A stretch of DNA of 62,146 nt, the filler included. It is 10 parts of 10 records of this genome, joined end to end, with 100 filler letters (N's around TTAATTAATTAA, not from the genome) between each part and the next. Parts side by side here need not be neighbours in the genome. Positions count along the whole stretch, not along the records: positions 35,091 to 47,548 come from SRR15195285_1702; 9 more parts are not named here. One strand, written 5' to 3'. Below the pieces are notes generated by a model. The model saw nothing but the letters and a program-made list of their open reading frames with translations. It had not been told where the DNA came from and ran no database searches. Positions within the stretch are counted from its first letter, which is position 1. Each line of letters starts with the position of its first letter. Of this stretch, positions 4,062 through 58,396 are shown in pieces. The position numbers were made by a program, and so were the translations under genes.

Positions 4062-4161
4062 NNNNNNNNNNNNNNNNNNNNNNNNNNNNNNNNNNNNNNN
4101 NNNNNTTAATTAATTAANNNNNNNNNNNNNNNNNNNNNNNNNNNNNNNNNNNNNNNNNNNN
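4062..4161. other. Artificial contig spacer
   Basis: N44-TTAATTAATTAA-N44, stops in all six frames. Confidence 0.97.
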
Positions 4162-4345: not shown

Positions 4346-4957
4346 GTGCCGCACACCCCCTACGGGTCCACTGGCTGGTTTGCGACCATTCGGGACGGTG
4401 AGGAGAGGCGTTGACGGCCGCGGGTCCCCCCCCCTCGCCGAGAGGTGCTGGAGGATGCGAGCGGCCAAGCTGGCGGCGGGGGAGTCGTGGGCGGGGCTGT
4501 CGACGGAGGAGGTGAGTAGTGCGGCGATGGGAGACGAGAGAGCGTCGGATCGTGTCCACGCCTGCATTGCGGGGCAGCGCCAGCTCCTTCGAAAGCGTCG
4601 CTGACAGTCAGTGTGCGTGCGCGCTACCGCAGAAACGGAAGCTGATCGCTGATGTGGAGAGGGAGAGGAACACCCCGCGGAAATCGGTATGCGTTGCCTC
4701 ACTCCCGCGTGCTCCACGGTCTCGCCTTGCCCTCCCGCCCCCTTCCCTTCCCATATCCCGTACGCCTACGTAGCATCTCACAGAATCGACTTCCATCGCT
4801 CTCGCCGTCGCTCATTCTGCCCCGGCTGGTGCTGTCTCAGCCTCGCTCGCCGCTGAGGCGCACAGCCCTGCACGTGGCTCAGGCGCGTAGCTTTTCGCCC
4901 CAAAGTGATGCGGCACGCAACGATCGTCGCCGTGCGAACGGGAGCACCGCAACTGGC

Positions 4958-12330: not shown

Positions 12331-12430
12331 NNNNNNNNNNNNNNNNNNNNNNNNNNNNNNNNNNNNNNNNNNNNTTAATTAATTAANNNNNNNNNNNNNN
12401 NNNNNNNNNNNNNNNNNNNNNNNNNNNNNN
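12331..12430. other. Artificial contig spacer
   Basis: N44-TTAATTAATTAA-N44. Confidence 0.97.
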
Positions 12431-20919: not shown

Positions 20920-21019
20920 NNNNNNNNNNNNNNNNNNNNNNNNNNNNNNNNNNNNNNNNNNNNTTAATTAATTAANNNNNNNNNNNNNNNNNNNNNNNNN
21001 NNNNNNNNNNNNNNNNNNN
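20920..21019. other. Artificial contig spacer
   Basis: N44-TTAATTAATTAA-N44. Confidence 0.97.
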
Positions 21020-25319: not shown

Positions 25320-25419
25320 NNNNNNNNNNNNNNNNNNNNNNNNNNNNNNNNNNNNNNNNNNNNTTAATTAATTAANNNNNNNNNNNNNNNNNNNNNNNNN
25401 NNNNNNNNNNNNNNNNNNN
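25320..25419. other. Artificial contig spacer
   Basis: N44-TTAATTAATTAA-N44. Confidence 0.97.
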
Positions 25420-28469: not shown

Positions 28470-28569
28470 NNNNNNNNNNNNNNNNNNNNNNNNNNNNNNN
28501 NNNNNNNNNNNNNTTAATTAATTAANNNNNNNNNNNNNNNNNNNNNNNNNNNNNNNNNNNNNNNNNNNN
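28470..28569. other. Artificial contig spacer
   Basis: N44-TTAATTAATTAA-N44. Confidence 0.97.
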
Positions 28570-31253: not shown

Positions 31254-34200
31254 TCAACTTGTGAGCTTTTTCAGCATTTGTATTATTGTCTGTTGCTGGG
31301 CTTGCAACGCATCAATCTTATTCTCCATGCCCTGTTGTGCATTGGACAAAGTCTCAACCTTCCTGGACAGCTCGCCCACTTGGCGCGCGACACGGCCACC
31401 TCGGGCTGGACCTTGTTCCTCTTGGCCGCCACCTTTGCTAGTGGCGTTTGGACTCTGTCCCTCATAGCGGGAGATATCGAATTTGGATCTGCTTGTGCCG
31501 GCAGATTGGTCTGAAGGTGAACTGCTGGTAGACTCATACGCGTCCGCAAGCGCTGGGCCGGCAGCGAGACTAAAATATTGGTCAAACATGTCCCAGTAAG
31601 TGTCCGTTTCAACTGGGTGCAGCCGATTCAACGTCCGCTCTGCCAAGATAGTCGGCTTAGTCGCGTCTGGCTTGTCAGGGTGCTGCTCACTGCGCAACAT
31701 ATCCGCCGTCAATCAGCATAGCGAGCAGCCCAGGGGATATCAAATCGTTGATCTATGTGATGTCCTTCCCAGCCATGATCCAAAATGCGTTCGCTAACGG
31801 TGCTTACTTGGAGTGTCTGGAGAGTGCCCCGATGCCTGTGCGCTTCGCCTGCATGAATACCATCGTGAAAAAGTGCGACGAGTCGTTCGCATCTGGGTTC
31901 TCGTTTACCACCTGTTCGTATGATTTCAAGATGATCGCAACTGGGGCGACATGTCACGATGGGCACTTTTCAGTCCAATGCTTGCAGAGCGAATGTACAC
32001 CTAGCTAGATATGTACTAGCATGATGGCAGTTACAGCAGAGAGGATCACACGTACCGAAGATGTTGACCAGCGTGAACACTATCAGAAGTGCTGTCATCC
32101 AAAAGAGACTGACCGCTGTAAGTGGCCGCAGCGAGTAAATCTCTTCAAAGTTAAAATCACCCATAGAGACACGCAATACTGAATTAAAGCTCTTCCCAAT
32201 TGTAGAGTATTCGTACAGTACTTGTCCAAACGCTGCGTGATAGCTCAGGGCTAGGCCCATGCATGGCATAGCCGCCATGATGGCGAAGACCATAATTGGA
32301 CGACCCGCCGCGCTGATCACCTTGGTGAGCAGACCCATCTGTGGAATGATGTCAAAATATTTAAAGAGCTTCACCCACATTATCAACGAATTCGGAACCA
32401 GAGTCCGCAAGTAATAGGCATTGTACAAGGAAAAGCGCGATATGCCTCCCTCAAGTGCATCAAGAGTGAGATCGAGCTCCCCCCGCCCTTCCAGCGGCAA
32501 TGGATGAGTGCGATTCGTCCCCACCATACTCGCGAGGAACCGATTGTAATGTGACTGTAGATCATCAGATTCCCCGAAGTACATTTGGAGCTTGCAGTAG
32601 AAGGCAGCCATAAAAGCGACGTAGCTGATCATTTCCAGCCCGTTCCAGCCGTCGGACAGATATGTATTCAAGCCAGTCTTGATCCATAGCCAAAGCGGAT
32701 AGATGGCACTGCGGGCCAAAATCTGATTCTTGCGACTCCGCTGGAAATCTTCTGTCTGCACGGTCATGAATTGGCCATCATAACTGAATACACCGCAGGC
32801 AATGTGATGTTAATGATTTTCGACCAGGTGCCGATACAAAAGAGGATTGGCGCGCCGTACTTGATGCGCTTCCAGATGGGACCTGTGATCAGCTTGCGCC
32901 AACCTGGAATTCCAGGCGACACGTTGCCGACTGCTGCGTTTCTCGCCTGCTCAATTGCCTTGTGCCTCGCATTGTAGGCCAAACCTGACAGGTCGTCGTG
33001 TGTCAGCGTCGATGCTGATCGAGATCTTGGCGAAGCAGTAGGTGAAGAGCTAGGCGAAGCGTCGCCGGAGGCCTAAATGAGACATCACCGAGTTCAAATT
33101 AGCTCAGTTGCGCACATGATACAGCTCGTGGCTCAGCAAAAAGCAAGCCATGGAAGCAACAGGGCTCACAAGCATTGGGTTCGCTGTGTGCACGACATTT
33201 TTGCCCGACAAAGACTTGTCTTTCTTCGAGTCTCGTGTTTCTGAATCTTGCCTGCCCATGTACATATCCATGGAAGTCGAGGACACCATACCCCAGTCGA
33301 GGTTCTGGAACGACGCGAAGAAACCGTCCGATTGCTTGTAGAGGCCCTCTGCTCGGAGATGGCGACGTGTCTCCCACATTGGCGATCCTGGGAAAAAGAA
33401 GCCGAGCAACCCTGCGACGTTGAGCAACTCGATTAAATCCTGGTGCATAGCCTGGCCCATCGTACGTATCACATCTGCCCTGACGGCGTTCGGCATGGCG
33501 AAACCTTTTTGCACTTCAGCCGGAAATTTGGCCATCTGCTTGAGCATTTCAACTCCAGTTTTATTGTACTGTTTGATCCCATCCTGGTAGGCGCGTTCAA
33601 TTGTGTTTGAGCGGTCAACTCCGCGTGGACCGTCCCAGTGCTGAATGTTGAAAGAGATCATCATACGGTCATGCAAATCGATCAAGTTCTTAATGACATC
33701 CAAGTAATTGACATGCCTCTCCAACTCGTAGAAAATCCAGTGCTGTGGATCTTTACGCGCTGCTGCCAGATGCTTGACGAAGGTGCTTGACATAGGCTCC
33801 TCCTCGAAGATGCTCAATGCAGCTGTGCCGCCCGTTGCTTTGCCCGTAAAGCTCTCATTCCATGCAATGTAGTCCCGCGCCACATCAATCCAATCAACTT
33901 GTGCGAACTTCTCGATGTTGATATGCGACGTTGAGACGTTGCGCTCGATGTGCTTGCGGCGCTTCAAATGTCTGGAGGCCTGGCCAGCAAGAGCAGCAAG
34001 ATAGCCTGGCTCAAACTCGTCCTGCCAGTGGTTTTTCCACATCACCTGCGCAAACAAGTACAGCAGGGAAGATTAGATACATCTGCCCCCTCCTCGGAAA
34101 ACGAAATGTATAGCAGGTCTAGTGTTCCTGAAAACTTACCGCGAGCTGCAGCATTGTTGCCATCTGTCCGACGTAAATTTCGTCCTGCATCTGGAGCTCA

Positions 34201-34990: not shown

Positions 34991-35090
34991 NNNNNNNNNN
35001 NNNNNNNNNNNNNNNNNNNNNNNNNNNNNNNNNNTTAATTAATTAANNNNNNNNNNNNNNNNNNNNNNNNNNNNNNNNNNNNNNNNNNNN
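34991..35090. other. Artificial contig spacer
   Basis: N44-TTAATTAATTAA-N44. Confidence 0.97.
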
Positions 35091-36098
35091 CAGTACGTCC
35101 TGAACACGTCGCTCCACCAGCTTCACATCGCCTCCTCTACAGTTTAACTGGCAGTTGATCGATCTTGTATGCTGGGGGGATGTAGAGGCTGCAAAGGCCG
35201 ATGTCAAGACTTATCTGTATGACATCCGGGCGACATACGACGCAGGCTATCAGATAACCAGCTGGCCGATGGCTGCAGAGATTGGTCTGGCCGGTATGAT
35301 CTCTACGGCTGTTTGTCATGTTCTACCATGTTCTACTCCGGATTAGCTGATTGAATTAAGTACAGTGACGTATCACCTGATGATGAGCTGATTGCGACCA
35401 CAGATATGCCGAGCTACTATGGGCTTGAGAACGGACTGGACTACCTGGCGGCAAAAGTCAAGACCGAACGCCTGGCAGTCGGCACAGCTACAGAGCTAAT
35501 CCCTTGGCTCACGCCGGGGCAGACAGGTGGTACAGGCGGTCCGCACTCCGGCGATCCCGGGATTGCATTTTTTAACATGCTAATCCAGTGCTTCGCGAAT
35601 GGTGCCACTGGCTTCAACGTATACACAAGCATAGGTGAGATTCTCTACAGCTACATTCATCTCACTCACTCAGCTACATTCATCTCACCGTGATCTATCG
35701 CTCAAACATGTATAGGTGTGTACGACATGTCGATCTGGCTGGCGATGCGCGACTCGATCGCGCTTGTCACACCCTTCGAAGATATCATTGTTGACGGCAC
35801 GCCTGTAGCTTCCGTGGCGTTTTCAAAAGTGAAAGAAGCGGCCGTTGTGTCAGCAATGGTCTTGCCTTGGCAAGGTATGCTGATTGCTTCCTCTACGCTG
35901 CCGCATGGAGTGCAAACGTCATTCACGGTGACAGCGCCCAGTCATGTGCTGGACGTTGCGGCAGACTGGCTGTTGTGTGACCTCGCAACACTAAAGGCAG
36001 TGACACCAGGCTCAGACGATACTGTGACCTGGGCCGCGGAGAGCGAAAACGGCAGCGTGTTGTTGCTTGCGCAGCACACTCCTTGCCACAAAGAGTAG
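35091..36098 (+). CDS. C-terminal exons of an uncharacterised protein (possibly a glycosidase-like barrel plus beta domain), 5'-truncated
   Basis: Three coding-like segments separated by GT-AG introns (MPSYYG, IPWLTPG, FANGATGFNVY, YDMSIW); family not recognised. Confidence 0.55.
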
Positions 36099-36157
36099 CT
36101 TTGCAATACAACAGTTGTTGATAGTGTTGAAACCCACAACTGACACTATCAGCCAGG

Positions 36158-39100
36158 CTAGTTGGGTTTCAATACAGGGGCAAGGTGCGGCACAGCCTCC
36201 ACAAGCTGGCCGACGGCCCGCGGCGGCAAGCCTATCAGCGATTCCGGGCTGAGCGCTCCTGCGAGTTTGTTGATGACGGCCACCATCCTCTGATTCCTAG
36301 TTATACCGAAACCTGCATCGCCTACATCGATGCCAGCACCACGAGCTTGTGCTTGCTGCGATATAGGTTGCTGGTTAGCCACTGATGGGTGCCGCGATCC
36401 AGAACTTTTGAAGTGGGCGCTCAGTCGACTTCCACACAGAGCCAGCGCAACCTGTCCAAATTGCGCCATCGTAGGTCGTGCTGAATCACTTTGGGTGCTG
36501 CAGAGCTCATCCAAAGATATCCACTCTGCCAACGTAAGAAAGACTGCTTCCGTCGCTGCAGTGTCAGAAATTGCAGTGGAAACTGCTGAAACAGTGGCTC
36601 CAGAAATGCTCGCTGCCGATGGAAAGACCTGTGCACCAGACGGGTCGTACAGTGATGACTCTCCTCCCACAGCTAGCAGCAGCCAGGGTGCGGTCTCGAC
36701 TAGAGATGCGAGCAGCCGCCAACATAATGCTCCAAGCCAAGCCTCAGGGTCAAGCAAACCTGCTGCTGTGTACGCAAGCGACTTGAGCTGCTCTGGCTGA
36801 ATGGTCGGCAGCGTCGCACAGCGAGATGCCAACAGCTGCACAAACGTCACGGCTGCGCGCTGCCCTGGTGCTAGATTGTGCTGGAGTTCGTACATGTGAG
36901 TACTACTAGGGTCAGCCTCGCATCTGTGTGGATCGATTTGGCCTTTTATCGCCCGGAAGTATGGCACAGCAACTGAATCGCCAAATATTTGTTTGACGAT
37001 TCCAACTATGGTATCAGCAGCTAGGATCCTTTCGGCGGAGGCTTCGCCCTCAAGCTCAGAGACATCATCTTGCGTGGGGAGACGCAGGCAGACAGTGTAA
37101 AGTGCAACTGCGGCGTTCACTGGATCCTCGGTCACACTTGAGAAAAACACGCCCAGTGTCTCATCTGGATGTGGTGGGCATGGAGTAAGCGCACCCTCAG
37201 CCGCGTAGAGAGCGGTTTCCCAGTTCCCTAGCAGTGCTTCTTTGCAGTTCTTTCCGAGCATGGCTTCTGCCGCAGAGAACACGAGGCGCCAGTGCGGCGT
37301 TAACAAAGCAGCTATCAATCGGGGCCGAGCACGAAGCCACTGTCGCACGGTCTCGATCACGCCACCGGAACGGCAGTGATGAAACAGACCCCTGCAGACA
37401 TGTGTAGCCATTGCTGCGCTCCATTGGCTACATATGCGTGAGTTGTGGTGACCAGTACGCTGGAGTAGAGCTTGCTCGATAAAATTCCAGACTGTATCCA
37501 GGCCACGCGTTGGCTCTGCTTCCGTAGCACCGCCGCCCCAGAGCAACACAGGTGGAAGCAGCAGACAATAGCTCATCAGCTCGTCCAGCCTCCGAGTGTC
37601 GCGTGATGCAACATCGGCTGCGCCCGTTCCATGATTCCGCCTCAACGTTTGATGCTCGGCCACAACGAATTGCAGCAGCCACGGTGTTCCCACTTCTGCG
37701 AATTCTTCTGTCACAGCAGCAGAGAACGGTGCGCGAGCGGCCACCTGTGCAGATGGTACATGCACTGACAGAGATGCAAGCTCCTGAACGAGAAGAAGAA
37801 AGCAGTGAATTGTCTCCGGCGGCAATGGCACGGCTGCCGCTGCACTTTCTTTGACTGTTGGACCTGGAAAGGCGTGGTGAGCGGAGTCAAGCAAACCACG
37901 GAGGACAGCCGAACATATTGCGGAAGCCCCATGCTCCGTAAGATACACGTCAAACACTTGAGCTCGTAAGTAGTCAAGTTTCTGCGGTGTGGAGAATTGG
38001 TCAGCACAGATACGTAGCCTCGTTTCATACTGAATCCAGGACTCCATTGGCAACATGTTCAGTGAAAGGGGTGTTCCAAGAATCGTAAGCACATTAATCA
38101 GCTCCGTCCAATCAGCAACAAGCCACCGGTAGGCAGAAGTATCGGTGACCACAGCCTGGTCAGCACCGCTTGATGCAGCGCTACCAACGACTGATACCTG
38201 TTCCGTCAAGCAAAAGCAGCTGATTAGCAGTTCGCATAGACCAAATGTTGACAACATCAGGCTTGACATGATGAACAATGGGAGTTTGTGTCGAGTACCG
38301 AGGTATTCTGAGGAGCGCGTGACAGTACCCGACTCGGCGGTGCACCTGAAAGCCACGATCGTGTACGCTCCACCAGCCATATGCTCGGATGAAGCAACGT
38401 CGACATTGGCAAATATGCAGCACATTCATCTGCGGCCCTCGCTCGAAGCTCTGCTTGCACAGGTGTTGTGTGGAGCGCATTGCATGCAATCAGGACAGCA
38501 CGTGTGTACGATGCGCCGAAGCGCAAAAACCAGTGTAGCCACGCTCGCGATTTCCACCACGGAATTGCAGTGAACAAACTGTCTAATGCCTGCAAGCTGA
38601 TCTCTACGCCATCAGCCTTATCAGCTGGATGATCCTGATCAGCTGTCAGATCAAGATGTTCCTCAGTATCGGTGGCTCCAAGCGTTTGGCAGGAATCTAG
38701 TGCAAGATACAGTGCGACACCATCACAGGTATTTTGTTCGATCTCTGAGGCTCCAATTACGGTGACAATCCGCACCGCCTGACTGTAAATCTGACTTCGA
38801 AGCCTGTGTGTGGCTGTACAGAACGCTGCAAACTGTTCATACACGGTCCGCGCGCCATCATCTTGCGAGTGCGCTGCCTGTCCAGTCAATGCATGGCCAT
38901 ATGAAACACAGAACGACTCTAGCACTCTAGAAGCCACGGCAGCAAGATGATGTTCAGAGTCGGGCCCTGTGATGGGTCCACTAGCAGACTTCGCATCGCC
39001 CTCAACTACCTGTGCGATATTCTTTTTGATCCTGCCGCACAATTTGCTGATTTCGGAGAATTGACCAGCATTAGTGCGGTCCGCATCAGGACTCCCGCGA

Positions 39101-41162
39101 TCTGAAGACCACTGCTTCCAGTTCTGTTCGTGCTGGGCAAGCAACTTGGTTAACCGTGCACCTGGGCCATCCCCACTTGTATCGTCGTCATCATCTCCTG
39201 CCACGCATGCCAGGTCAAAAGTCTCCAACGCACCCTCTCGCACAACTTTTGTCTTCCTATCTTGCGCCAACGCTTCGATCAGCTGCCGCTGCGCAGATCG
39301 TGTTTCAACATCAGCTGAGATGGGAACTAATAGTACTGGCTCGGCAGAAAGCTGCCACCAATTTTTACGAAACATGAACCTCGAAAATATTGCCCGCGGC
39401 GCCGCGCCCGTTCGTTTAAATTCTGCAACATAGCCCTGTATCTCCTTTCTCACGTCGTCGACTGAGCCGGCTTGGTCTTGGTCATCTGCCCGTTTTCCAA
39501 TTGCCACTGATGTCTCCCCTAGATCGGCTAGTCGGGTCTTCGCGAGAGCAATATAGGCTTTGATCGCCTCTCGACAACCAGCAGGTGTTGGGTTGTTTCG
39601 TGGATTGAGTGCTGCGATATGAAGCTTGAGATATTGACTCCCTTCCCGCGGAACCTGGACTGTTAGTGCACGCACGAGTGCGAGGACCGATTTCTTGACT
39701 GAACCTCCTGCACCTGATACCACAAATGTATCGCGGAAGCACTCGAGGTAGCGTTTGTATTGGGCCTGCATGTCGGGTTGCTCCTCACTCTGCAGCCCAA
39801 AAGTAATGAAGCGCAGCAGCGTTATCGACGATAAAACTCGCCCTAATGGTCCGCTCTGTTGCTCGGCTCCTTGAGATCCCAGTTCGGCGGTTGCTTCGGT
39901 AAACACTATACGAAGGTTTTCGAGCAAGACAGGCACAATGGATGGATCCGCACCGATGACCTTCGGTATCAGCATTACAAGAAAAGTCCAATCTGTCTCC
40001 TCGCGGCGCACTACCCGGTCGATTGCGATAGCAACGTTGGCCGCGCTCAGGTGCGGGTGGGCAACGAACAGCGAGACAACATCATTCTGCAGCCGCGTCG
40101 ACATCGCAGTAGAATCATGCGCTACAGTCACAGCTTCAGTCTGCGCACAGGCTGCAGACAACACTGACAGAGAGCTGCCAACCCCGGTCACTTCTGGATG
40201 CGGATGAGTCAAACAGTGCAGAAAGTGATCCTGAAGCAGCTGATGGGCTGGGGCTGAGCCGGCCGACATCGGTTCAGAGGCCAGGTTACCCGCCACACGG
40301 AGTAGTTTGAGCTGTATCAGAAGGCTAGGATCGGGCTGCATAGAGAACACTTGATCGCTGGTGGCCAGCGCGTTCAGGAGCTTGCCAGCGACATCTGGTG
40401 CCTTGCTGCTGCTGAAGCTACCAGCACAGAAGTGATCGCCTGTGTGCACAATTGCCAGAAGCTCACGGAATAGCCCCGGTAAAATCATTGCGTCTGCGAA
40501 AACAGTGACGTGCCCGGCTCAGGCTAGGCAAAATCAGTGAGGGACGCGAGTGGCTACTTATACTGTACTACTGTAGGTTCCGCACCGTCGCGACCGACGC
40601 GCAGCTCATCATTGGCAAGACTGCGAATTCCTTGAACAATAGCATCGAGCGACACATCGGAAGCCGCCTCGAGAAGCTGTTCAATCGGCACTACACGTGC
40701 TGTATGCAGCCGCCAAACTGCTCGCAGGGTCGGCCGGCTCCTGACGGCGACTAGAAAGTGTGCAACAAAGCGGGAGCGGTTGAACTCGCGCGACCCCTGA
40801 AGCTGCTGAATCACGGCGAGCACCGCCTCAGCCTCACGGGGTGCGGAGGTATCCAACGCAGCAGTAGCGCTCTCGACAGCCGCTAGCTGCGTAGCCAGCA
40901 CCGTCGCTGCCACCTCCGGAAACTGTGCGCTCGTGTGCTGCCGTCGGACCTGGTTCACCTGCCGTGCAATCTGCTCCCTCGTGGACTGCTGCTCGGCGCC
41001 CGTCTGATCCACTTGAAACACAGGCAGCTCGGCGTCTGCGGCGTCACGCTCGCGCTCCAGCCGAGCACCAAGACCACACGGCACGCCATCTGCGGCAGGC
41101 TCGAAGAGCCGTGCGCGCTTCTGCGCCCTGTCAATGAGTTCCAGTGCGCGCTGCCGCAACAT
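36158..41162 (-). CDS. FANCA: Fanconi anaemia group A (FANCA)-like alpha-solenoid protein, at least 3 exons
   Basis: Colinear matches to human FANCA motifs: LRAVWRLHTARVVPIEQLLE ([20 protein letters not shown]), KKSVLAL..LTVQVPREGSQYLKLHI (KKALVFL..LSELVPFESPRYLQVHI), YIALAKTRLADL (YISLAKTRLADL), EFKRTGAAP...FRK (VFEHTGNIP...FRR). Confidence 0.8.
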
Positions 41163-41679
41163 GGATCCCCCAGGCTGGAGCAGACGTCGCAAAGGCGACA
41201 ACCAGTACCTGCTGCTGGACGGCGAGCAACAGCAAGGGGGGCCGCCCGCGAGATCCACGTGACGCTTCGCGCCTCCTGCCAGTGGTGTTACTGTGTAGAT
41301 GACGGTATACGCCTGTATCGGGTTGGATGGGCTATTCCTACCCCTGCTAAGCTACAAGAGGGGGAGAGGGAGCGAGGCTAGGCGCTGTACGTATACTGTA
41401 GCCCAGCATCGCGGTTTGAACTTCAAGATGAGCTCATAGTCAACCTGGGCACTGCGGGGGTCAGCTTGTCGCAACTTTGTCGCTGCCCCAGCACTTGAAC
41501 CACCGGAGGGTGGACGAATTACGACTGTGGTGTGCGGAGTTTGCAACGCAGATGGGTCGAAAAGACTACGAGTTTCCAACACGCACCACACGAAGAGTCT
41601 CCCACTCAACCGTATGGGGGTCCTCATACGAATGACTGATAAACTAAAGTTCTCCATTAGTAGATCGTCGACGTGGCCG

Positions 41680-43752
41680 TCATCTCCTGCCTTTGCCATG
41701 AGCGACGTGGTCACACTCATTGCCGTCGAAGCCAGGAGAACAATGACACACGTAGCTTCGCACAACGTCGTTTAGGTGCCCGTTGATAGCCGTATCTAGT
41801 GCCACCGATTCTTCACAGATCCCACCGTTCTGACACGGAGCGCTCGCGCAGCAGCCATCCAGGCAAGCATTTGCCACTGGATCAGTGTGGTGGATGTGAC
41901 CGGCTTCCCCTTCAATTGCCGCGCCACCATCTTCATTTGAGTAATGATCAGCCAGGTACTCGTCCTCCACATGCCAGACTTCCACGTCAGTTGCTCCCCA
42001 GTCACCTGGGGCACCACAGACGCCATTCATGGGGTCTGCACCCACAGTATACGTGGAGCCAGTCGCGTGACTGCAACTGCCGCCGATTCCTGGAGCGCCA
42101 CCCATGCCGATACTGAGATCGCCACCCTCAGACGCGCCAAACGCCGGCCACGTGTCGTAATTTACGTAGACGTAGTGCGTATCTGATCCAGTGGCAGTGT
42201 AACGCGTGGGCTCACGTCCTGCTCCAACGAGGCTGAAAACAAAGCTGCTAGTAGCGGTTGAGTCGTAGCAGTAGGTGATGGCTTCACTGCCGACACATTC
42301 GTTGCCAGGGGTGAGGCAGCACTCCGTCACACCGAACGGGCGCGACGAATAGCCACCGAAAACGTCTCCCCGGGAAGTTCGCGCAATGGTCAGTGTACTA
42401 CCATACCCTGCACACACGATAGTGCAGTGCTTAGTTCTTCGATGGTACATGATATCATGGGTAAGACATAGCAGGGGCTCTGTTGCTGTGGCACAGATAA
42501 TTATTGAAGCACAGGCTGCTCACCATCGCAGGCGTGATGGAAAGCGTGTGGCGTCTGTTCGTCCGTGAGAGAGCTGTAGCATCTCTCCCATGTTACTCGC
42601 TGCCCTGGGAAAATCCACTCATTTATCTGATCGCCCTCGGCGGAGGTGATGATCTGGGACCCATCGAACATCACGTCCACAGTCACTTCTTCTGCCTCAC
42701 ATGCCACGATCGCCGCCTCGAAGAGCGGGTCAGTGGACGGGTCGAGTTTGAATCCACAGTCCTCGACGAAAGGAAGCAGCACTGCTGCACATTGTCGGGT
42801 ACACGAGGTTGGAACTCCATCGACGCAGGCACCGGGGGTGGAGCAGCATGCAGCTTCCATCGCTGCGGTTCTCGCGCTGAGGCAGCGTGGATCGCTGTTG
42901 TCCTCTTCACCGCACAGCCGCTGCGCCCATGTATCGTCACCATGGTCAGGGCATGGGCCGTAGGCATCGCGGCCTGAGATCGTATGCAGTCGAGTCAATA
43001 AAGGACACGTGCTACAGAACACTATGTTGGGGAGACAACACTGGGATGAGTTGATTACCGAACATGCAGTGGCAATCGAACCCTTGCTTCTCGCAGTCGT
43101 CTTCCGAGTGCCCCTCGACTAGACACATGCAACACGAGCATCTCGGCGCACACCCAAAGGCTCGAGGGCAGTCTCCGCCGTCGAAGCCGCATTCTGCAGT
43201 GCTGCATTCATCGTCACACACTCCATTGTGCGATTGGTCTTGGCAGTGCCCAAAGAACTCAAACTCAGCGCTGGATCCCCCTTTCTCGTCAACAGGCGCG
43301 TCATTGGGAACGTATGGTGTCCCAATGCCACACTGTCGCGTGGGGCGAAAATCGTCGGCGCTAGGAATGTGGATGACGGGTCCGTTTGACACCGACCTGC
43401 ACGTGGGATCAACGCAGCTGCTGCAGTCTCGTCGCATGAAGCCCTGGCAGCACTCGTTGAATTGCTGATAGTCGTGAAAGGGAAGCCCTTCCGTGCTGAC
43501 CAGAATGGGGTTACACTGCTCGAAAAACTCGCCGAACACGTCCGCGCAGAATTCTGAGGGGCATGTGTCAGGCAGCGTGCAGCCACTCTGCGTGCGCCGG
43601 TGGCCTCCGCCGGGCTGCACAGCACAGCATGCGTCGTTGACCTCCTGTGCCCGAGCGGCAAACTCGCTCACGCTGCATTCGGCGTCCTTCTGTGCTCGGC
43701 TCGACGAGACCGAAAGGAGCCATGCCGCTACAAAGCGCACCGCAACTCCCAT
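41680..43752 (-). CDS. Secreted Cys-rich protein: two helical Cys-rich repeats, LNR/Notch repeat, TLDc domain, EGF domain; 3 exons
   Basis: Signal peptide; LNR NGVCDDECSTAECGFDGGDC; TLDc WERCYSS..D...AFHHACD..GSTLTI...GDVFGGYS..SFVFSL..PAFG..DL..DVEVW; EGF CASAPCQNGGIC...YVCHCSPGFDGNEC. Confidence 0.85.
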
Positions 43753-44109
43753 CCTGGTTTCGTTGGGGGGGCGGGGGGGCGGGCACCGCGCGACGACAGC
43801 GCGCGTGCTAATGCTGTCGCGCTTGATCGTCGTCGCCGCGCGACGCGCGCGCGACGATGCGCGCGCGCGCCCGCTAGATACTAATCCATTTGTTGTATAC
43901 CGGTATGGTACAGAGGTACACGCGCACGAGCCCTCCTCGCCTAATCGTTTTCCGCCGCGCTTGCCACCCCTCCTCCGCGCGTGGCTACAGCTGGCTCAGG
44001 TAGTAGTGCACTTGCTTGCCACGCTGTCAGCGCAGTCTCTCTGATCTAGCCTGTTCGCCGCCCGCCACATCGAATTATCCAGCCTCTGCTGGCTCCAAGT
44101 TGGGCTCCG

Positions 44110-45289
44110 ATGAGACGTTTCAGCGACCTAGGCGCTCTGCGCGATTGCTGTAAGGCAAACGGGGGACAGTTTGTGGTCTACAATCGGTGGGTTCTGGACG
44201 TGCGTGGATTCTCGCACCCGGGGCCGCAGCAGCTAGTGTTGTCAAATGTAGGTGAAGATGTGACGAAGTTGTTCGACGAACGTGGGCATTCATCTTACGC
44301 GCGCGAGCTGTGTGAGCAGATGGCCGTCGGATATATCGGCGAAGCGGAGAGTAAGCCGGGCCAGCTGCTGAGTCATGCGAGGGAAACCATGACGGCTAAG
44401 GAGGAGGCGATCCATAAAAAACTGGACAGTTTCATCGATATCACAAAGCCCCTCGTACCACAAGTGAAGTTGCTCACCAACGAGGAGTACCTGGCGTTCG
44501 TGAGGCGGCCGCGGTATCTGCAAGACACAGACGGCATCAAGCTGCATGCTGACGAGGCAACCGAAAGCGCGAGCAGGTCTGACTACGGACTCAATTTGCG
44601 GCTGGTGACGCCGGTGGTGGCTGTTGAGGTCTTGGTGGCTGCGGCTTGGCATTGGCATGACTATGGACAAGGGAACCGTCATTCGCCAGCATTGCAGTTC
44701 GTCGTGCAGTTTGTGCTGTTTTTCTGCATGTTGGGTATAGGTTTCATATGGACCCTTACGGAGTACTTCTTCCACGCGTTCGTGCTGCACGACGAAATTC
44801 GCCTAGATTCACAGGCTCCCGCAGATGGAGAGAAGAACGCCAACTTATTTGCTCGGCACCTCCATCACCATGTCTTCATGAACCAAAAGCACCGTGTTGT
44901 GTTGAAGCTCAAAACCTACGGTAAGGAAACCATAGATCCACGGTCCTACCAAAGGCATTTGGGTGATTTCGTAGCGTGTGAATGTAGGCACATACGTGCC
45001 GCTAGGCTTTGCATTGGTCATAGTATTGGCCAAATTGAACGTGCTTAGCGGGACCAGCGGCTTGCTGGTACATGCTGGATGGCTCGGTGGCTCGCTTCTG
45101 TACGACGGTATGCACTACTCGTTCCATCATGGACCTGATCTCAAGTTTCGCTGGTATGCGAAGATGAAAGCACAGCATATGCGGCACCACTTTCGCGACA
45201 ATTCGGTGGAGTTCGGGGTCACAAATCCGTGGTGGGACGTGGTATTCGGCACATCGGGTCCGAAACACACGGCGCCAAAAGTGGCCTGA
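44110..45289 (+). CDS. FA2H: Fatty acid 2-hydroxylase (cytochrome b5 plus hydroxylase); 2 exons (intron 44921-44987)
   Basis: b5 motif HPGP and GHS; WTLTEYFFHAFVLH, HLHHH, YDGMHYSFHH, HMRHHF, FGVT..WD.VFGT. Confidence 0.9.
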
Positions 45290-45353
45290 CAGTCTCGAGA
45301 CCAACGCAATCGTATCGTTAAGGGCGTCGCCGTTTGTTCATTCATGCCCTTGG

Positions 45354-47253
45354 CTACTTAACTGCTAGCATACCTGACGCTGATCTCGCCGCCCGTCCGC
45401 GCCGCCTCACAATTACCATACCCAACGCCACTCCAACACCAAACACGCCAGCCACAAATCCTGCAGGCAAGCCTGCCACTTTCAATGCGTGGTTGGAAGG
45501 CTGGCGTTGCGGCGGTGCTGGACAGGGCGCGAGTGGACGAGCAGAAGTAGCGGGTCGAAGAGTGTCAAGCTGCTTGCGCAGCCGCTCCCCAACCTCCCAG
45601 CCCTGCCATAGCACAGCATTGTCAGCCACGGCTCTGGTGCATGCATAGCCTGCGTTGAGAATGCAATGGAGCTGCAAAGTTGAGTTTGCCTATTCAGTTG
45701 CATGACAAGTAAACGCACCCAGTGTCCCCAAGAGAGACCATATGCTAGAGTTGTGTCAAAACCGACAAAGTAAAGCGTCGGCTCCGCCACGCTCTGACAC
45801 CGACCGTCTGTCACAGGCAGCCGCTCTTGGGTAGAGGGCGACAACTTCGTAAGCACTATATCTGCAAGCGTTGGTTCCAGCAGCTGCATCAAGCCGTGAC
45901 GGTAGCCTGTCCCAAGGACCACCGCGTCGCAAGGTATCAAATCACTGCCATGACTGGCGCTCTGGAGCCGCAGCCCATCTCGGTGGATCGCCTCAACAGG
46001 CCCTTGCTTCACCATCACTTGCCCCTGAGCTCACAAACAAAGAGTCACATCGGTAAGCATTCCCACCATTGTTTCAAACGAAACCAACACAATTTCACAC
46101 GTCTATGCATGGTAGCGAGCGCACGAACGTTTGCAAGCAGAGGCGCAAGCCCGACGTCCAGGGTTGGCATTCGCGGCGGAGCTGTGGTGACCCTACTATC
46201 TAGATTGCCGTTGCCTTCACTCAACGAGTACGCCGGCCCAACCTGCTGCAGCCGAGCCCGCTCCGTCTCTGGGCCTAGCTCAGGCCGCTGGATGCCATAC
46301 CGACCTAGATCAAGGGAAAAGTACTGGAGAACTTGGTCGACCTGTGATGCATTTGCTGCCCACTCAGGTGAGCCCTGGCCGATGTGCTGCAGCTCGGACA
46401 GCGTTTCTTGAGGGCTGCATGGGCTCGTCGCGTACCAGGCAGACGCGCGCACGTTCAGATCTTATGTGCAATGAGAGAAGCACGAAGCAAAACAGTACGA
46501 GTTTCTACTGTATAGCTCTCACTCCGTAAGAGCCTGCTCGATCCAGTGCACCCAGCTGAGCTTCCGCAGGTCGAGAAAGTGCCGTGGTCCAGATACAACC
46601 ATCGTGACTGACCTCGCGCCATGCTCGACCAAATCCACGCATATCTCTGCAGCAGAATTGCCCGACCCGACAACTGCCACATCCTTGTCTACGAACCGTG
46701 CTCCGTTTGCATAGTGGCGGCTATGGACCACGTCCCCACCACGCTGCAGAAATGCCGACGTACCAGGCTGCTCGTGGCTCGCAAAGCTGGGCACGTGCGG
46801 CAGCCGCGCTGCACCGGTACAGAGTGCGACTGCCTTCGCGTGGAAAATCCGCCCAGTCTCGGTCGTTACCGTCCAGCCGGATGGCCAGTCATCGCGCGGC
46901 GGCGCTCTGGCGATGGATGCCACCGGCGTCTCGTAGTGCACCTCAACACCCGGACGCAACCTATGCAGCGCGCAGTACTCGTTCAGGTAGCGGACGAGTT
47001 CAGACTTGCTCTTGTACATTGAGTAATTGCCGCGGCTTTCGAGGTCGCCATCGTGTAGCAGCCGGTGGCGTGGCGTGTGAAGCCGCAGCCGGTCGTAATG
47101 GCCGCCGAAGCCAGCGCCGGCCTCGGGTCCTGCCTCAAGCAGCGCGAAACTGACGCCGAAGTGACGCAGCGCCGCCGCCAGCGCCACCCCGCAGAAGCCC
47201 CCACCGACGACCACGACCTCTACCTCGTCCGTCGCGCCCGTCGCGTTCGTCAT
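45354..47253 (-). CDS. Flavin-containing monooxygenase (class B, YUCCA/bacterial-FMO-like) with C-terminal membrane anchor; about 4 exons
   Basis: FAD motif VVGGGFCG, YDRLRLH, ALCTG, FMO motif VVHSRHY, NADPH motif VVGSGNSAAEI, LGTGY, LYFVGF; C-terminal TM GFVAGVFGVGVALGMVIV followed by RRR. Confidence 0.88.
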
Positions 47254-47548
47254 CTGGGACGGGCTGCACCAGCTAGCGCAGCTTTGTACGCAGCCAGCTG
47301 ATTCTACGTACACCTCCAGTGGTTCTACGTATATCGTCTAGGGGCGCGCGCCCACCGAGCTGACGCCGGCGACGCGACCCGGCCGGCGCACGAGGTACCG
47401 GTGTATGCTGACTACCGTTCGTTCTTTTGTATGATTTTTTTTTAAATCGTAATAACAATGAACTTAGTATATGTACCAACATTTTTGTACGGAGCGAGCA
47501 CGCACGCGCAGGGTCGGTAACGATCCGGTCTTCAAATGCATGTGCCCA

Positions 47549-47648
47549 NNNNNNNNNNNNNNNNNNNNNNNNNNNNNNNNNNNNNNNNNNNNTTAATTAA
47601 TTAANNNNNNNNNNNNNNNNNNNNNNNNNNNNNNNNNNNNNNNNNNNN
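47549..47648. other. Artificial contig spacer
   Basis: N44-TTAATTAATTAA-N44. Confidence 0.97.
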
Positions 47649-51650: not shown

Positions 51651-51750
51651 NNNNNNNNNNNNNNNNNNNNNNNNNNNNNNNNNNNNNNNNNNNNTTAATT
51701 AATTAANNNNNNNNNNNNNNNNNNNNNNNNNNNNNNNNNNNNNNNNNNNN
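51651..51750. other. Artificial contig spacer
   Basis: N44-TTAATTAATTAA-N44. Confidence 0.97.
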
Positions 51751-51998
51751 GTGTGTGTGTGTGTGTGTGTGTGTGTGCGTATCTCTGTGTCTGTGTGTGT
51801 GTGGGTGTGCCTGTGGCGTACGCCTCTGCAGGCCCTCAGCTTAGCTCCCTCGCCCTCTCTATCGCGCGCGCTCTCCCTGTCTGTCTCTGCGTGCGTGCGT
51901 GCGTGCGCGCGTTGTTCGTGTGCGTGTGCGTGTGCGTGTGTGCGTTTGAGTCGCATGTCTGTGCCTGCATGACGCGCGCTCTGCGTGCGTGTGTGCAG
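51751..51998. repeat. (GT)n / (GTGC)n-rich intron remnant at contig edge
   Basis: gtgtgt... and gcgtgcgt tracts ending at acceptor gtgcag (51998). Confidence 0.85.
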
Positions 51999-53573
51999 GG
52001 TCGCGATGAGGATATCGACCCGGCGCAGCTCTCGGGCAAGCTCGGCTCCTGCGAGCTCGGCGAGGCGAGCCTGGCGCAGGTCCTCCAGTCCTGCGGGTAT
52101 CTGCTCAAGCAGGCGGGGAAGGGTGGCGGCCACGACAGGGACAAACTGACGGAGAAGCTCGATCCACTGGGTTTCAGCGCTGAGCAGGTGGACAAGCTCG
52201 CGGAGGTGCTGCAGTGGGTCAAGGACGGCGCCACCGTCGAGCCCATCCCTCTGCCCCCTCACGTCCTGGACGCGCCGGACTCAGACGAGGAGGAGGGCGC
52301 TGATCTTGACAGTGAAAGTCTACACTGGTCAGCCATTGTCGGAGAGAAGGCGAAGCTCGAGCGCATGCTGGCGAAGCCTGGCATTCAGATCGACGGCGTG
52401 GATGAACGTGGCTACACAGCGTTCCATCAGGCTTGCGGCAACGGTCATGTCGACTGCGTCAAGGTGCTTGTCGACGCACAGTGCGACACCACCAAGCGCA
52501 ATGCCGTGCGTCTGACTGGGTGGCAGCTTGCGAGCTCGATGAAAAAGGCGGAGGTCTGCAAGCTGCTCGAGAGCTACGCAGCCAACGGCCACGCAGGGCT
52601 TGTCGCGGAGAAGGATGGCACACTCGCCGAGACCGACGACGCCGCAACCGACGACACCGCGGCCAAATCCAAAAAGGAGATGTGGACCGTCAAGATTGAG
52701 GCCGCCGACAAAGACATGACGGGCAAGTTCTCGGTCTACGTGGTCGAGGTCTGGGGCGAGTCCAAGCGTCTCGCAGTGACCCACCGGCGCTACAGCGAGT
52801 TCGACCGGTTGCGCAAGGAACTTCTCGCCAGCCTAGGCGAGGCGAGCGAGGACCACGATAAGATTGAGAAGCTGCCCTTCCCGAAGAAGACCCTCCTTCC
52901 TACTTCGAAAAACTCGAAAGCGGTGCAGGACAAACGCTCGGTCGAGCTCATGAAATGGTTGAATGCTGCCCTCGGTATTGTCGGAAAGGCGCCAGAGCTC
53001 TGCTCTTTCCTTGGTCTCTCTCCGGAGTTCATTGGCATCACGATCGTGAAGGAGAAGAAGATAGAAGCATACGAATGCCTGTTCAAGGTGGAATCCATGC
53101 CGCCCGCCAAGGGGCTTACGACCGTGGCTCTGCCGGACCAGATTCTCATGGGCGTTGACATGACTGGGGTGCAGCTCTTTGATGCGAAAACCCGGGCGCG
53201 TATTGACGGCGAAGGTTACCCATACCATCTGATCCGCTCATGGTCATGGCACCAGCCGTCTGAGGACGACTGGTACGTGGTGCTGACGTTCGGTGAAGAC
53301 CAGAAGGGATTTAAGCTGCAGTTTCAGACCGACGAGGGCAAGGATATCTGCGCGAAGATGCGGGCTTTTGCCACAGAGCTTGCTGTGAATCTCCGCAAGG
53401 AGTCGCTCGAACAGATGGCCACGCCGGCACTGCACACAAAACTTGCAGAGCTGCAGGCGAGGTTGCGACGCGCTGAGGCGAGGGAGTCCGGATCGTTCAA
53501 GAAGCACACGAAACTGCAAGCAGAAATCACTGCGGTGGAAGAGGTACTTGCCAAGAGGGGCGAGGGGGCGTAA
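51999..53573 (+). CDS. Ankyrin-PX-PTB/FERM-F3 protein (sorting-nexin-like), 5'-truncated, with COMMD-N-like helical region
   Basis: Ankyrin DERGYTAFHQACGNGHVDCVKVLV; PX VYVVEV...RRYSEFDRL...LPFPKK...R..EL..WL; PTB-like MGVDMTGVQLFD..YPYHLIRSW..FQTDEG.DI; C-terminal coiled coil. Confidence 0.82.
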   Translation, partial: GRDEDIDPAQLSGKLGSCELGEASLAQVLQSCGYLLKQAGKGGGHDRDKLTEKLDPLGFSAEQVDKLAEVLQWVKDGATVEPIPLPPHVLDAPDSDEEEGADLDSESLHWSAIVGEKAKLERMLAKPGIQIDGVDERGYTAFHQACGNGHVDCVKVLVDAQCDTTKRNAVRLTGWQLASSMKKAEVCKLLESYAANGHAGLVAEKDGTLAETDDAATDDTAAKSKKEMWTVKIEAADKDMTGKFSVYVVEVWGESKRLAVTHRRYSEFDRLRKELLASLGEASEDHDKIEKLPFPKKTLLPTSKNSKAVQDKRSVELMKWLNAALGIVGKAPELCSFLGLSPEFIGITIVKEKKIEAYECLFKVESMPPAKGLTTVALPDQILMGVDMTGVQLFDAKTRARIDGEGYPYHLIRSWSWHQPSEDDWYVVLTFGEDQKGFKLQFQTDEGKDICAKMRAFATELAVNLRKESLEQMATPALHTKLAELQARLRRAEARESGSFKKHTKLQAEITAVEEVLAKRGEGA

Positions 53574-53711: not shown

Positions 53712-56700
53712 TTAGGTTTGGTCGCCAGATATCATCAGGGTGTCCTGCGGACCTCCACTTGCGCCCCCGTCGGTGCTGTCGGCCAGCGCTGTTGCCGTCT
53801 CAGCCTCGTCCGCAGCGCCAGATTCCTTGGCGTATTCGAGGAACCTGTATCAGCAAGATATTCCGGTCAACAATCGAAGCGCATAGCCACGCTCCTGTGC
53901 AAATTAGACCTGTTGCACATAGCTGCTAGCAGAAGGAGACTCTGATGCGTTGGCGCCAGCTTCGTTTGGCTTGCGGGCGACTAGCGACCCATTAGGGTCA
54001 ATCCGCCTGAGCATTCTGCGAAGCCCCAGAAGTGGAGCCATGGATGAACGTGCGAACCGCAGTGAGTACCCAAGTTAGTCAGTGTCACCGCTATCAGCAA
54101 AACAGCAGGTTGATAGTGGTGTATGAACAGCCGCTGGTAGGGGCAAATTGGACAATCGCGAGCGTGACCTGTGTGCCCATCAATTTGATGAGGATACGGT
54201 ACTAAGAAGGGCGTGCAATGGTTTCTCACCGGTCCCGAACTGCATTATCTACCTTCTCCTTGTAGTCCTCGAAGATGTCTTGGACCAGTACCATGTGTAA
54301 CCCGATCAGCAGTCGTGCCTCTGCAACAACATCGTTGTCTGCTGGCATTGGTTTGCCGACCTTTCGCTCGCACAGTCCATATCTGTTGCCGAAACAACGG
54401 GAAAGTGCAAATGAGCTAGACACGCACAAGTTACTCGCGCACGTGCACAACTCACAGGACCGAGAGAAAATCGACTGTGTGGTCCTCTGAGAGTTGATCC
54501 CACATGTTTTCGAGCGGTGTCTCGAACGTTGGGGCCTCGGTTGAGTCGACTGCAAACGCGAGACGCGGTCACGCGTGAGCACATCGCTAACATCTACATT
54601 GGCAGGCCAGATATATGCAAAAAGGGTGGCGAGTGTCATCTCACCCAGGAACCGCGAAAATTTACCATCGGGCAACTCAGGCAACCGCAGCTCGCGTGGG
54701 TCAATTTCCTCCTCCCCAGCCATCTCCTCACGCGCAAGTGCCCGGACGTGCGGCACGTCATCCTCTGGGATTCCTGTCTCCAGCAGCTTCAGCAATTTCG
54801 GCAACTGCTCCCTGGTGTTGATTATGCCTGTAGCATCTTTGTCGAATGACTGCCAACAAGCAACGAAATTGTCGCAGTCCTCTTTCGTGATAGGCAACCC
54901 AGCCAGCTCTGTGAGATCATCGAACTTAGACATGACGATGTTCACCGTCATTTCAATTGTAGAGAACATGATGATCAACGAGAAAACCATGAAGAAGATC
55001 TGGGCTGAACCCTTATTGCCACAATTTCCAGCCTCCTCGGTGCAGACAGACGGAGAGTACAAGTCTTCACTCACCATGCACGCATGTGTCATGCACGCGA
55101 AGCCGTCTGCCGTCGCGACACCGAAAAGTGTCATCATGGCAACTGGTGCGTTTTCGAAATTTCGGTATTTGCCAAGGCAAGGGCCGTGATGAGCAACTTT
55201 ACCAAACAGGTTCATCCCGAGAATCGCAAAGATGTAGAGGATGAGGAAGACCAACGTCGCAATCGAGAACAGACTTGGAAGCGCATTGATGAAAGTATCA
55301 AAGATGATCTGCAGTCCTTTTAGCTGCTGACTTGCCTTGAAAAGGCGACCAACCCGGCCGACGATACGCGCAATTCGGACAATGCGAAAAATCGCGTAGT
55401 TGACGCCTGTCATCAACTCGAAAACACGTAGCAAGATATCTACCCACGACCCGGCCACGACAAAAAAGTCGAATCGATTCCATGAATCTCGGAAGTACTC
55501 GGAGAACCCGAACGCGAAAATCTTGATAACTGCTTCAGCCGTGAAGATGATCGTACAGATCAAGTTCACACCTTCTTGAAAGTCCGCCATGGCCTCGCTC
55601 TCGCCATGCGTTTTCATTCCCATGACAACGCAATTCACCATGATTGTACACATGATGAATGTGTCGAACTTCGGACTGCTGGCAATCTTGAATGCCGCCT
55701 CGCGGTCCGCACGGGCAGGTTCGCGCTTCTTTTCTGCACGAACATGCTGCAGGTGCCGCATGATGCTAAGCCACTGCATCTGGTCCTTCGTCAACTTCTC
55801 CATTCCCGCCATTCGAATGGCGAGGTATTTCTCGTAAATGACACCCACGAACAAATTGAGCAAGAAAAAGTTGTTGATCACAACGAAAATTATAAAGAAG
55901 AAGCCCCACAGCGGGTTCGTGTCTCGCACAGGCGACCGACCGACTTCCGTTGCGTCCATGGCGTAGTGCGCCTTGACAATCCAGTCGTTCTGCGAAGATA
56001 TTTCAAAGAGTGCATACATGGACGTCATTGTGTCGTCGAAGTGGACGGGTGGGTTTTTCCATTTGGCTGCACGGATTTCGCCTCCGTCGATCCACGTTCC
56101 CACGCAGTCCTCAATCCCAGCGACCGAGTGGTCAGTGCATGACCAAAACCTTCCTTTCAGGAACATCATCGCCATCAGCGCAAATACGAGCCACATGAGA
56201 AACGTGACGCCAATGACATTCGACAGAGAGATCATGGACTGGGCCAAAGATGCCGCAAGTTGCTGCAGGCTCTTCACCCGGTTGAGCATACGCAAAGCGC
56301 GGAAAGCGCGTAGCAAGCGAAGTGATTTTAAATACCCAATATCTGCCGCTTGTGCAAGATAGTCGACCCAGGAAATCACGACAATGCCGAAATCTAATTT
56401 GTTCCAAACGTTCCAGGTGAGATACGCATCCTGTCCGCCGATGAAGCCAAACGCAACGGTCTTTAGCGCAGCCTCTGCTGTAAAGATCACTGAGAATGCC
56501 AGATCAAGCACGTTCAGCATGAACTTTTGGTCTGGATTGTCGCGTTCCAGGTAAGGTGTGTCCATGCCCATCGTGATACAGTTGCAAACGATGACGAACA
56601 GGATGAAGGTGTCGAAACCACTGTGAAGAACGAACTTGATCGAAAATCGCCGAAACGGATGATCTATAGCGAAAATGCCGAGCGACTTTCCAGGTTTCTC

Positions 56701-58296: not shown

Positions 58297-58396
58297 NNNN
58301 NNNNNNNNNNNNNNNNNNNNNNNNNNNNNNNNNNNNNNNNTTAATTAATTAANNNNNNNNNNNNNNNNNNNNNNNNNNNNNNNNNNNNNNNNNNNN
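58297..58396. other. Artificial contig spacer
   Basis: N44-TTAATTAATTAA-N44. Confidence 0.97.

Follow-up and report, generated by a model that had tools for sequence, protein, structure and literature searches.

The stretch of DNA analysed here, called the window throughout (62,146 nt, filler included), consists of ten unlinked contigs of 3.0-12.5 kb each joined end to end, so that neighbourhood across a spacer is meaningless. One of these contigs (SRR15195285_1702) carries on its minus strand a gene for a divergent orthologue of FANCA, a protein of the Fanconi anaemia (FA) core complex, and this gene is the subject of the present analysis. Three long minus-strand open reading frames (ORFs) in three different phases were found at 40554..41351 (265 aa), 38257..40518 (753 aa) and 36158..38425 (755 aa). 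When joined as three exons (Table 1), they yield a spliced frame of 4812 nt that encodes 1603 aa with 0 internal stops and extends from an ATG at 41162 to position 36158, the final base of the stop codon. The protein begins MLRQRALELIDRAQKRARL, and its first Met aligned with the start of P0002, a full-length relative. The initial annotation had estimated a protein of about 1500 aa similar in size to FANCA; the comparable size held, while the gene model gives the larger figure above.

The positions of both introns were placed by GT-AG sites and homology and are accordingly listed as putative. A join after exon 1 is needed because the first frame meets a stop at 40554, the next frame opening at 40518, and the spliced text across this junction, ..RVGRDDAMILPGLF.., corresponds to ..GISDEVMILPGMF.. 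of P0002. The second and third frames overlap at 38257-38425. Across the putative intron 2 junction, with APQNTS before the joint and VSVVGS..AYRW after it, the spliced text is identical in length to the unbroken text of P0001 and P0002, both of which are uninterrupted at this position. In another relative, P0003 (73-75% identical), homology ends directly after APQNTS and the text beyond is non-homologous, as would be expected if P0003 has the same intron 2. Contigs of RNA libraries (two metatranscriptomes and one reverse-transcription PCR (RT-PCR) library) matched each of the three exons in part, at >=99% identity, but such libraries may contain DNA, so that exon coverage there is no demonstration of expression or splicing.

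The motifs on which the initial annotation had based its comparison with human FANCA were all located in the three minus-strand frames, colinear with FANCA. They comprise AVWRLH (40721-40704) and VVPIEQLLE (40694-40668), the core motifs VPREGSQYLKLHI (39654-39616) and YIALAKTRLADL (39555-39520), both in the second frame and exon 2 alongside FMFRKNWW, and WIQYETRL (38038-38015) and ADQFS (38005-37991). A basic motif, QKRARL, lies at 41123-41106 in exon 1. The suggested Pfam check also came out in favour of FANCA: Fanconi_A_N (PF15865) matched exon 2 with 30.3 bits (E 3.9e-7; gathering cut-off 27) at profile positions 275-352, and a colinear piece in exon 1 scored 12.2 bits at profile positions 8-36, the window protein thus matching part of a profile of 355 positions. 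The full-length relative P0002 reached 40.9 bits with the same profile.

Searches in both directions returned FANCA and nothing else, as the initial annotation had asked of a reciprocal comparison. With phmmer, the exon 2 frame had 2 matches at E<=1 among 177,635 distinct PDB sequences, and 2/2 were FANCA (Xenopus 6lhs_B, E 3.6e-10; human 7kzp_A, E 2.1e-9; FANCA residues 442-637 aligned). The exon 1 frame aligned weakly with human FANCA 129-203 (E 0.056), and exon 3 alone had 0 phmmer matches in PDB. In the reverse search, a profile of six protist sequences found only FANCA in PDB at E<=0.01 (2/2; 6lhs_B, E 5.6e-23; 7kzp_A, E 3e-22), with the alignments falling into three colinear stretches. 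A search of 1.84 billion representative proteins with exon 2 gave 77 matches at E<=1e-3, of which 20 were scanned with Pfam; the 15 of these outside the protist group all (15/15) carried Fanconi_A_N, FANCA_helical and FANCA_arcN.

A profile built from the 32 longest animal-type matches gave 167.3 bits on the spliced protein, compared with a maximum of 0.0 bits over 300 shuffles. Its first domain (42.9 bits) pairs protein residues 2-212 with profile positions 31-239, and its second (119.6 bits) pairs residues 438-1304 with positions 425-1198, spanning the helical and arcN regions. On exon 3 alone the same profile scored 57.4 bits over exon-3 residues 45-380. In hhalign, the protist-clade profile and the animal profile were aligned nearly end to end (Prob 100, E 2.9e-41, Q 2-1600 against T 35-1425 of 1444), with per-column confidence moderate to high until about residue 1300, including 4.8-7.9 over the helical/arcN region, and poor beyond.

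Because sequence methods fail over the last ~300 residues, exon 3 was folded by prediction, and it was folded twice because animal sequences in the alignment might bias the fold. From a 38-sequence alignment that included animal FANCA, AlphaFold2 gave a model with a predicted local distance difference test (pLDDT) score of 74.9 and a predicted TM-score (pTM) of 0.75; from six protist sequences only, the values were 69.5 and 0.74. With VIA-align over 48,161 PDB chains, the mixed-alignment model ranked 6lhs_B, the Xenopus FANCA C-terminal domain (CTD), first (Z 11.1; root-mean-square deviation (rmsd) 4.3 A over 382 aligned residues), the next row covering just 96 residues. The protist-only model again placed 6lhs_B at rank 1 (Z 14.3; runner-up Z 8.0), with an rmsd of 5.4 A over 434 residues that pair exon-3 45-679 with chain 903-1402. 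This part of the chain is the whole of arcC as defined in PMC7102982. Helical repeats can reach about Z 13 in VIA-align through arrangement alone; the match to FANCA was accepted because the family was the expected one, the sequence register agreed and the score stood 6 Z units above the next row. On the predicted models, exon 3 keeps the C-terminal arc fold of FANCA.

The Pfam model of this region is a poor guide to its presence. FANCA_CTD was present in 7/15 and missing in 8/15 of the animal-type FANCA proteins that have the other three FANCA domains. Because 8/15 real FANCA are missed, domain-gain reconstructions from this model are unreliable, and for the same reason the treatment in PMC6792448, where the C-terminal Fanconi_A domain is a vertebrate acquisition and the gain of Fanconi_A_N is placed at Choanozoa, may be affected in its first part. 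The published vertebrate acquisition of the FANCA CTD may reflect profile sensitivity. Domain-based surveys of FANCA will likewise undercount the family, as is seen from the CTD count and from two of the relatives described below, P0005 and P0008, that have no Pfam match.

We also examined where the gene falls among its relatives. Marine data hold relatives at 78, 73, 71, 65 and 48% identity to the window FANCA; P0001, P0002, P0003, P0112 and P0113 fall within this range of 48-78%, and more distant protist-type relatives (P0005, P0007 and P0008) are 23-37% identical. Exon 2 matched P0005 with E 4e-29 and P0008 with E 1e-18, both of which were without a Pfam match at E<=0.01. At least four protist-type lineages that are mutually very divergent (23-37% identity) can be told apart: the window clade, P0005, P0008 and P0007. 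The FDLAC, FMFR(K/R)NWW and LLWGG blocks are common to the four and absent from animals, as is a basic K-R-x-R motif, located behind the first helix of the window protein and of P0002, P0005 and P0007 and reading KKRAL in P0008. A FastTree phylogeny of 45 sequences of at least 1100 aa placed P0001 and P0002 nearest to the window protein, followed by P0005 and P0008 and, outermost, P0007, and separated these six protist-type sequences from the other 39, animal-type, sequences by a branch of length 1.27 with support of 100; the tree is unrooted, long branches are joined readily in it, and its unnamed tips carry no taxon. On sequence grounds, the gene belongs to a deep protist-type FANCA clade that is separate from the animal type.

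The host was approached through the other contigs. One of them encodes a four-domain voltage-gated-type cation channel of 1335 aa at 54226-58233 (-) (Ion_trans, 485 bits), which shares 99% identity with a EukProt protein with a COSAG02 name, 89% with a further COSAG02 protein and 38% with one named SAG31. Its relatives from uncultured marine sources are 89, 79, 78, 77, 64 and 49% identical, a ladder similar to that of FANCA. Some of the more distant relatives of the channel were noted to have EF-hand and PKD-channel domains. Picozoa sp. COSAG02 is described as a heterotrophic archaeplastid that is represented by a single-cell genome (32.1% BUSCO, about one third complete; PMC10268365), and the label is given in the same form in bioRxiv 10.1101/2025.05.06.652364. 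Such labels denote picozoan single amplified genomes (SAGs) and co-assemblies, which are placed together with red algae (PMC8599508; bioRxiv 10.1101/2025.05.06.652364).

Composition ties the FANCA contig to the rest of the window. The GC content over the ten contigs is 0.533-0.594, and in tetranucleotide profile the FANCA contig correlates at 0.76-0.91 with the nine others, the best of all contigs. The relative synonymous codon usage (RSCU) of FANCA and of the channel correlates at 0.58, and long unbroken ORFs of 2008 and 1335 aa occur on other contigs. The FANCA region was encountered at >=99% identity in marine or seawater metagenomes (19 result rows from 15 studies). The host is probably an uncultured marine protist, not an animal, picozoan-like and on the side of Archaeplastida; that the gene comes from a picozoan-like, non-opisthokont host is quite likely in our judgement, the link being shared assembly and composition.

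Taken together, we consider it very probable that the gene is homologous to FANCA, and the window protein is a full-length though divergent FANCA orthologue, as the initial annotation had proposed: Fanconi_A_N, the PDB matches, the animal-type profile and the arcC fold all agree. For the joint reading, an intact three-exon gene that encodes a FANCA orthologue in a non-animal, picozoan-like host, we would put the probability at about 0.72. Several observations weigh against it. At the level of the gene model, spliced joints over 36000-41500 were not reported in the contigs of four runs (two of metatranscriptomes, one of RT-PCR and one of DNA), and part of intron 1 is retained in one contig of an RNA library (40511-40736). 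At the level of homology, Pfam FANCA_helical (PF24781) scored 12.4 bits on exon 2, under its cut-off of 28; FANCA_arcN (PF24783) and FANCA_CTD (PF03511) had no match in the window protein, and exon 3 was without any Pfam match. The last ~300 residues have no sequence similarity to animal FANCA, the animal-type profile giving 1.1 bits on the last 400 aa and hhalign a confidence of 0.1-2.4 over the last ~300. At the level of the fold, Foldseek against PDB with the mixed-alignment exon-3 model found nothing at E<=0.001, with FANCA outside the 50 best rows. Those best rows were generic solenoids (RRP12, SYS-1, RyR and karyopherins, TM-score about 0.15), and ESM Atlas likewise returned generic solenoid clusters for exon 3 (MEI1, LINES and Nup188, 0.90-0.91) with low recognition, an uninformative result.

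Other points on this side concern the host. The FANCA contig has no physical link to the contig with the Picozoa-like channel, and no EukProt-labelled protein was among the FANCA matches, which is weak evidence given a word-based search in which about 8000 candidates were scored. The suggestion of the initial annotation that the host is not an animal is favoured by the tree branch, the introns, the composition and the COSAG02 channel, but the link is indirect, through another contig.

As a FANCA orthologue, the protein would be expected to act as a large alpha-solenoid scaffold of the FA core complex, by analogy with vertebrate FANCA (PMC7102982; PMC10085685). It would enter the nucleus, possibly by means of the N-terminal K-R-x-R motif as a candidate nuclear localisation signal (NLS), and may dimerise head-to-tail through the convex outer face of its C-terminal arc; each chain of the vertebrate dimer contributes arcN and arcC, about 770 residues, to the interface (PMC7102982). 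The protein could provide a FANCL-type ligase, which would monoubiquitinate FANCD2-FANCI in interstrand-crosslink repair, with its scaffold or its chromatin-targeting module. Alternatively or additionally, the protein might anneal single-stranded DNA on its own. FANCG contacts vertebrate FANCA at the N-terminal domain and at the end of arcC (PMC7102982). The window protein may bind partners in another way, as it has no counterpart of the first ~35 residues of vertebrate FANCA with their bipartite NLS bound by FANCG; the hhalign alignment begins at T35.

This missing segment also bears on whether the protein is a true FANCA homologue that works outside a vertebrate-style core complex, as a stand-alone solenoid for annealing or scaffolding with at most a minimal FANCL-FANCD2-FANCI pathway. 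FANCA-less minimal pathways are described in Dictyostelium (PMC2730050) and in plants and fungi (PMC4132730), and intrinsic strand annealing by FANCA is cited in PMC11061109 and PMC7102982. In agreement with such a role, Pfam found no FA family beyond the three FANCA frames among the 51 window ORFs scanned (those of at least 140 aa), but 62 kb is no sample of a whole genome, and an absence from it is uninformative about the rest. Both FANCG-contacting regions are, moreover, kept in sequence or in fold. We regard a stand-alone protein as unlikely, while still worth considering.

The FANCA contig might instead be a stray holozoan contig, for example from an uncultured choanoflagellate, brought in among picozoan contigs by co-sorting or co-binning, in which case the gene would carry no implication for the age of FANCA. 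The contigs of the window are unlinked, uncultured marine choanoflagellate SAGs are reported to carry Fanconi_A_N (PMC6792448), and one picozoan SAG was heavily contaminated by a cryptophyte (PMC8599508). No EukProt Picozoa protein was found among the FANCA matches in the search of about 8000 candidates. The possibility is kept alive mainly because of animal-looking signalling domains, namely the LNR, EGF and TLDc domains of neighbouring genes and the TRPM-SLOG and IRS-type PTB domains on other contigs. Against it stand the uniform composition, with the FANCA contig the best correlated of all, and the long branch between the window sequence and all 39 animal-type sequences. Sequenced choanoflagellates are intron-rich, whereas there are just two introns in the 4.8 kb of this gene and two long ORFs on other contigs are unbroken. 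A stray holozoan contig is improbable.

Horizontal transfer from an early opisthokont, after which the presence of the gene would say little on the age of FANCA, would suit the patchy known distribution and the fact that named FANCA are almost all animal, but it is very improbable given at least four mutually very divergent protist-type lineages, a protist-type group that lies outside and not inside the animal-type group, and introns and composition that are host-like.

The features of the FANCA contig and the spacers of the window are collected in Table 1.

Table 1. Coordinates of the FANCA gene, of the other genes on its contig and of the spacers (positions along the window).
Feature	Position	Strand	Length	Content
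Contig with FANCA gene	35091..47548		12,458 nt	Sole DNA physically joined to the gene
FANCA exon 1	40586..41162	-		Residues 1-192 and first base of codon 193; N-terminal helix, QKRARL, AVWRLH..VVPIEQLLE
FANCA intron 1 (putative)	40494..40585	-	92 nt	GTGCGG...CAG, phase 1
FANCA exon 2	38299..40493	-		Residues 193-924; end of N-terminal domain, conserved core, equivalents of helical subdomain and arcN
FANCA intron 2 (putative)	38198..38298	-	101 nt	GTACTC...CAG, phase 0
FANCA exon 3	36158..38197	-		Residues 925-1603 and stop; equivalent of arcC solenoid; WIQYETRL..ADQFS, LLLVQELASL, LLPPVLLWGG
Convergent 3-exon gene, unassigned family	35104-36098	+		Short GT-AG introns at about 35287-35357 and about 35637-35716
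TLDc+EGF gene	41680-42519	-		FANCA contig (Pfam)
LNR (Notch-type) gene	43012-43995	-		FANCA contig (Pfam)
Cyt-b5 (cytochrome b5) gene	44050-45048	+		FANCA contig (Pfam)
FMO-like gene	46522-47337	-		FANCA contig (Pfam)
Nine identical spacers	4062-4161, 12331-12430, 20920-21019, 25320-25419, 28470-28569, 34991-35090, 47549-47648, 51651-51750, 58297-58396		100 nt each	N44 + TTAATTAATTAA + N44

The stop codon of the convergent 3-exon gene lies just 60 nt from that of FANCA, so that the 3' ends of the two genes must overlap or abut. Two short segments 5' of the FANCA ATG, at 41316-41369 and 41429-41465, were matched by many small partial-match contigs (depth up to 21) from DNA and RNA runs. These contigs have loose ends on both sides, nothing was found there in Rfam, and the segments look like a short dispersed repeat or a shared upstream element. 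The Rfam scan of the FANCA contig gave nothing above gathering (best GlsR19, 24.3 bits against 100), and a tRNA scan of the whole window found zero genes.

Further genes were noted on the other contigs. A TRPM-type SLOG domain (LSDAT_euk, 136.8 bits) lies in the 2008-aa ORF at 4646-10672 (+), a polycystin-type channel at 31973-32809 (-), and an ankyrin-PX-IRS-type PTB protein at 51699-53573 (+). If the host is picozoan, the animal-looking domains of the window (SLOG, polycystin, LNR, EGF+TLDc and IRS-type PTB) would be notable for that lineage. A gene for the DNA-repair enzyme tyrosyl-DNA phosphodiesterase 1 (Tdp1) was found on a separate contig at 20968-22017 (+) (Pfam 192 bits; E 1.4e-31 to human TDP1 structures); some window ORFs are interrupted by spacers, and this one is among them, in its 5' part.

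The initial annotation had described FANCA as a late and mostly animal addition. In support of this, a published table marks FANCA as missing in Arabidopsis, both yeasts, Drosophila and C. elegans (PMC4132730, Table 1), a survey of three dinoflagellates did not find it (PMC6680887, Table 9), and the minimal Dictyostelium FA pathway excludes it (PMC2730050). The description is somewhat dated, however, as Fanconi_A_N outside animals has already been placed at the base of Choanozoa (PMC6792448) and FANCA is listed for Mucoromycotina fungi (PMC11061109). Our literature search, which left subscription journals and about 1.7 million PMC articles outside its scope, returned no report that joins FANCA with Archaeplastida or Fanconi with Picozoa. 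Within it, the terms 'FANCA homolog' and 'FANCA ortholog' were found in clinical uses only and not for a protist, no evolutionary paper besides PMC6792448 was found to name Fanconi_A_N, and no link of FANCA, FANCG or FANCL with diatoms, haptophytes or stramenopiles was seen among the matches listed.

The gene described here is a new, very divergent member of the known FANCA family in an unexpected part of the tree, and not a new kind of system. FANCA is mutated more often than any other gene in Fanconi anaemia, and the FANCA-FANCG-FAAP20 module is usually taken to have joined a minimal FANCL-FANCD2-FANCI pathway late. If the host lies outside Opisthokonta, the origin of the module would move back by hundreds of millions of years, and plants, amoebae and yeasts would owe their minimal pathways to secondary reduction. 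An origin of FANCA before the opisthokonts is plausible. We hold more tentatively, as a possibility that falls somewhat short of even odds, that a FANCA with both the N-terminal domain and the complete arc was present in the common ancestor of Opisthokonta and Picozoa, at or near the last eukaryotic common ancestor (LECA), and was lost many times. Were this ancient origin true, there would have been losses in land plants, Dictyostelium, Dikarya, flies, worms and dinoflagellates, a multi-module FA core complex would be ancestral and reduced in most model organisms rather than a late animal invention, and the reported 'vertebrate acquisition' of the C-terminal domain would be spurious, a product of profile sensitivity.

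In comparison with the known structures, the window protein of 1603 aa stands beside chains of 1437 aa for Xenopus laevis FANCA (6LHS/6LHU) and 1477 aa for human FANCA (7KZP), and is ~130-170 residues longer than the vertebrate proteins by way of insertions. It shares with both the order of the conserved blocks, including VP.E..QYLK.HI, YI.LAKTRL.DL and F(R/K)..(W/Y), and with Xenopus FANCA the arc-shaped HEAT-like C-terminal solenoid, as superposed on 6lhs_B 903-1402. Identity to vertebrate FANCA is ~17% overall (hhalign) and about a third within a core of ~170 residues, and the K-R-x-R motif of the window protein is not the bipartite NLS of the vertebrate protein. A natural sequence at ~17% identity that keeps the arc fold would show which surfaces are truly constrained. 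With the FANCA listed for Mucoromycotina (PMC11061109), which was compared by description only, the gene shares an occurrence outside animals and a profile-based claim, but that claim stays within Opisthokonta. With the proteins of uncultured choanoflagellates (PMC6792448) it shares a non-animal marine source, fragmentary environmental or single-cell data and Fanconi_A_N; unlike them, it comes from a host that is probably outside Opisthokonta, and its C-terminal arc is present by predicted fold.

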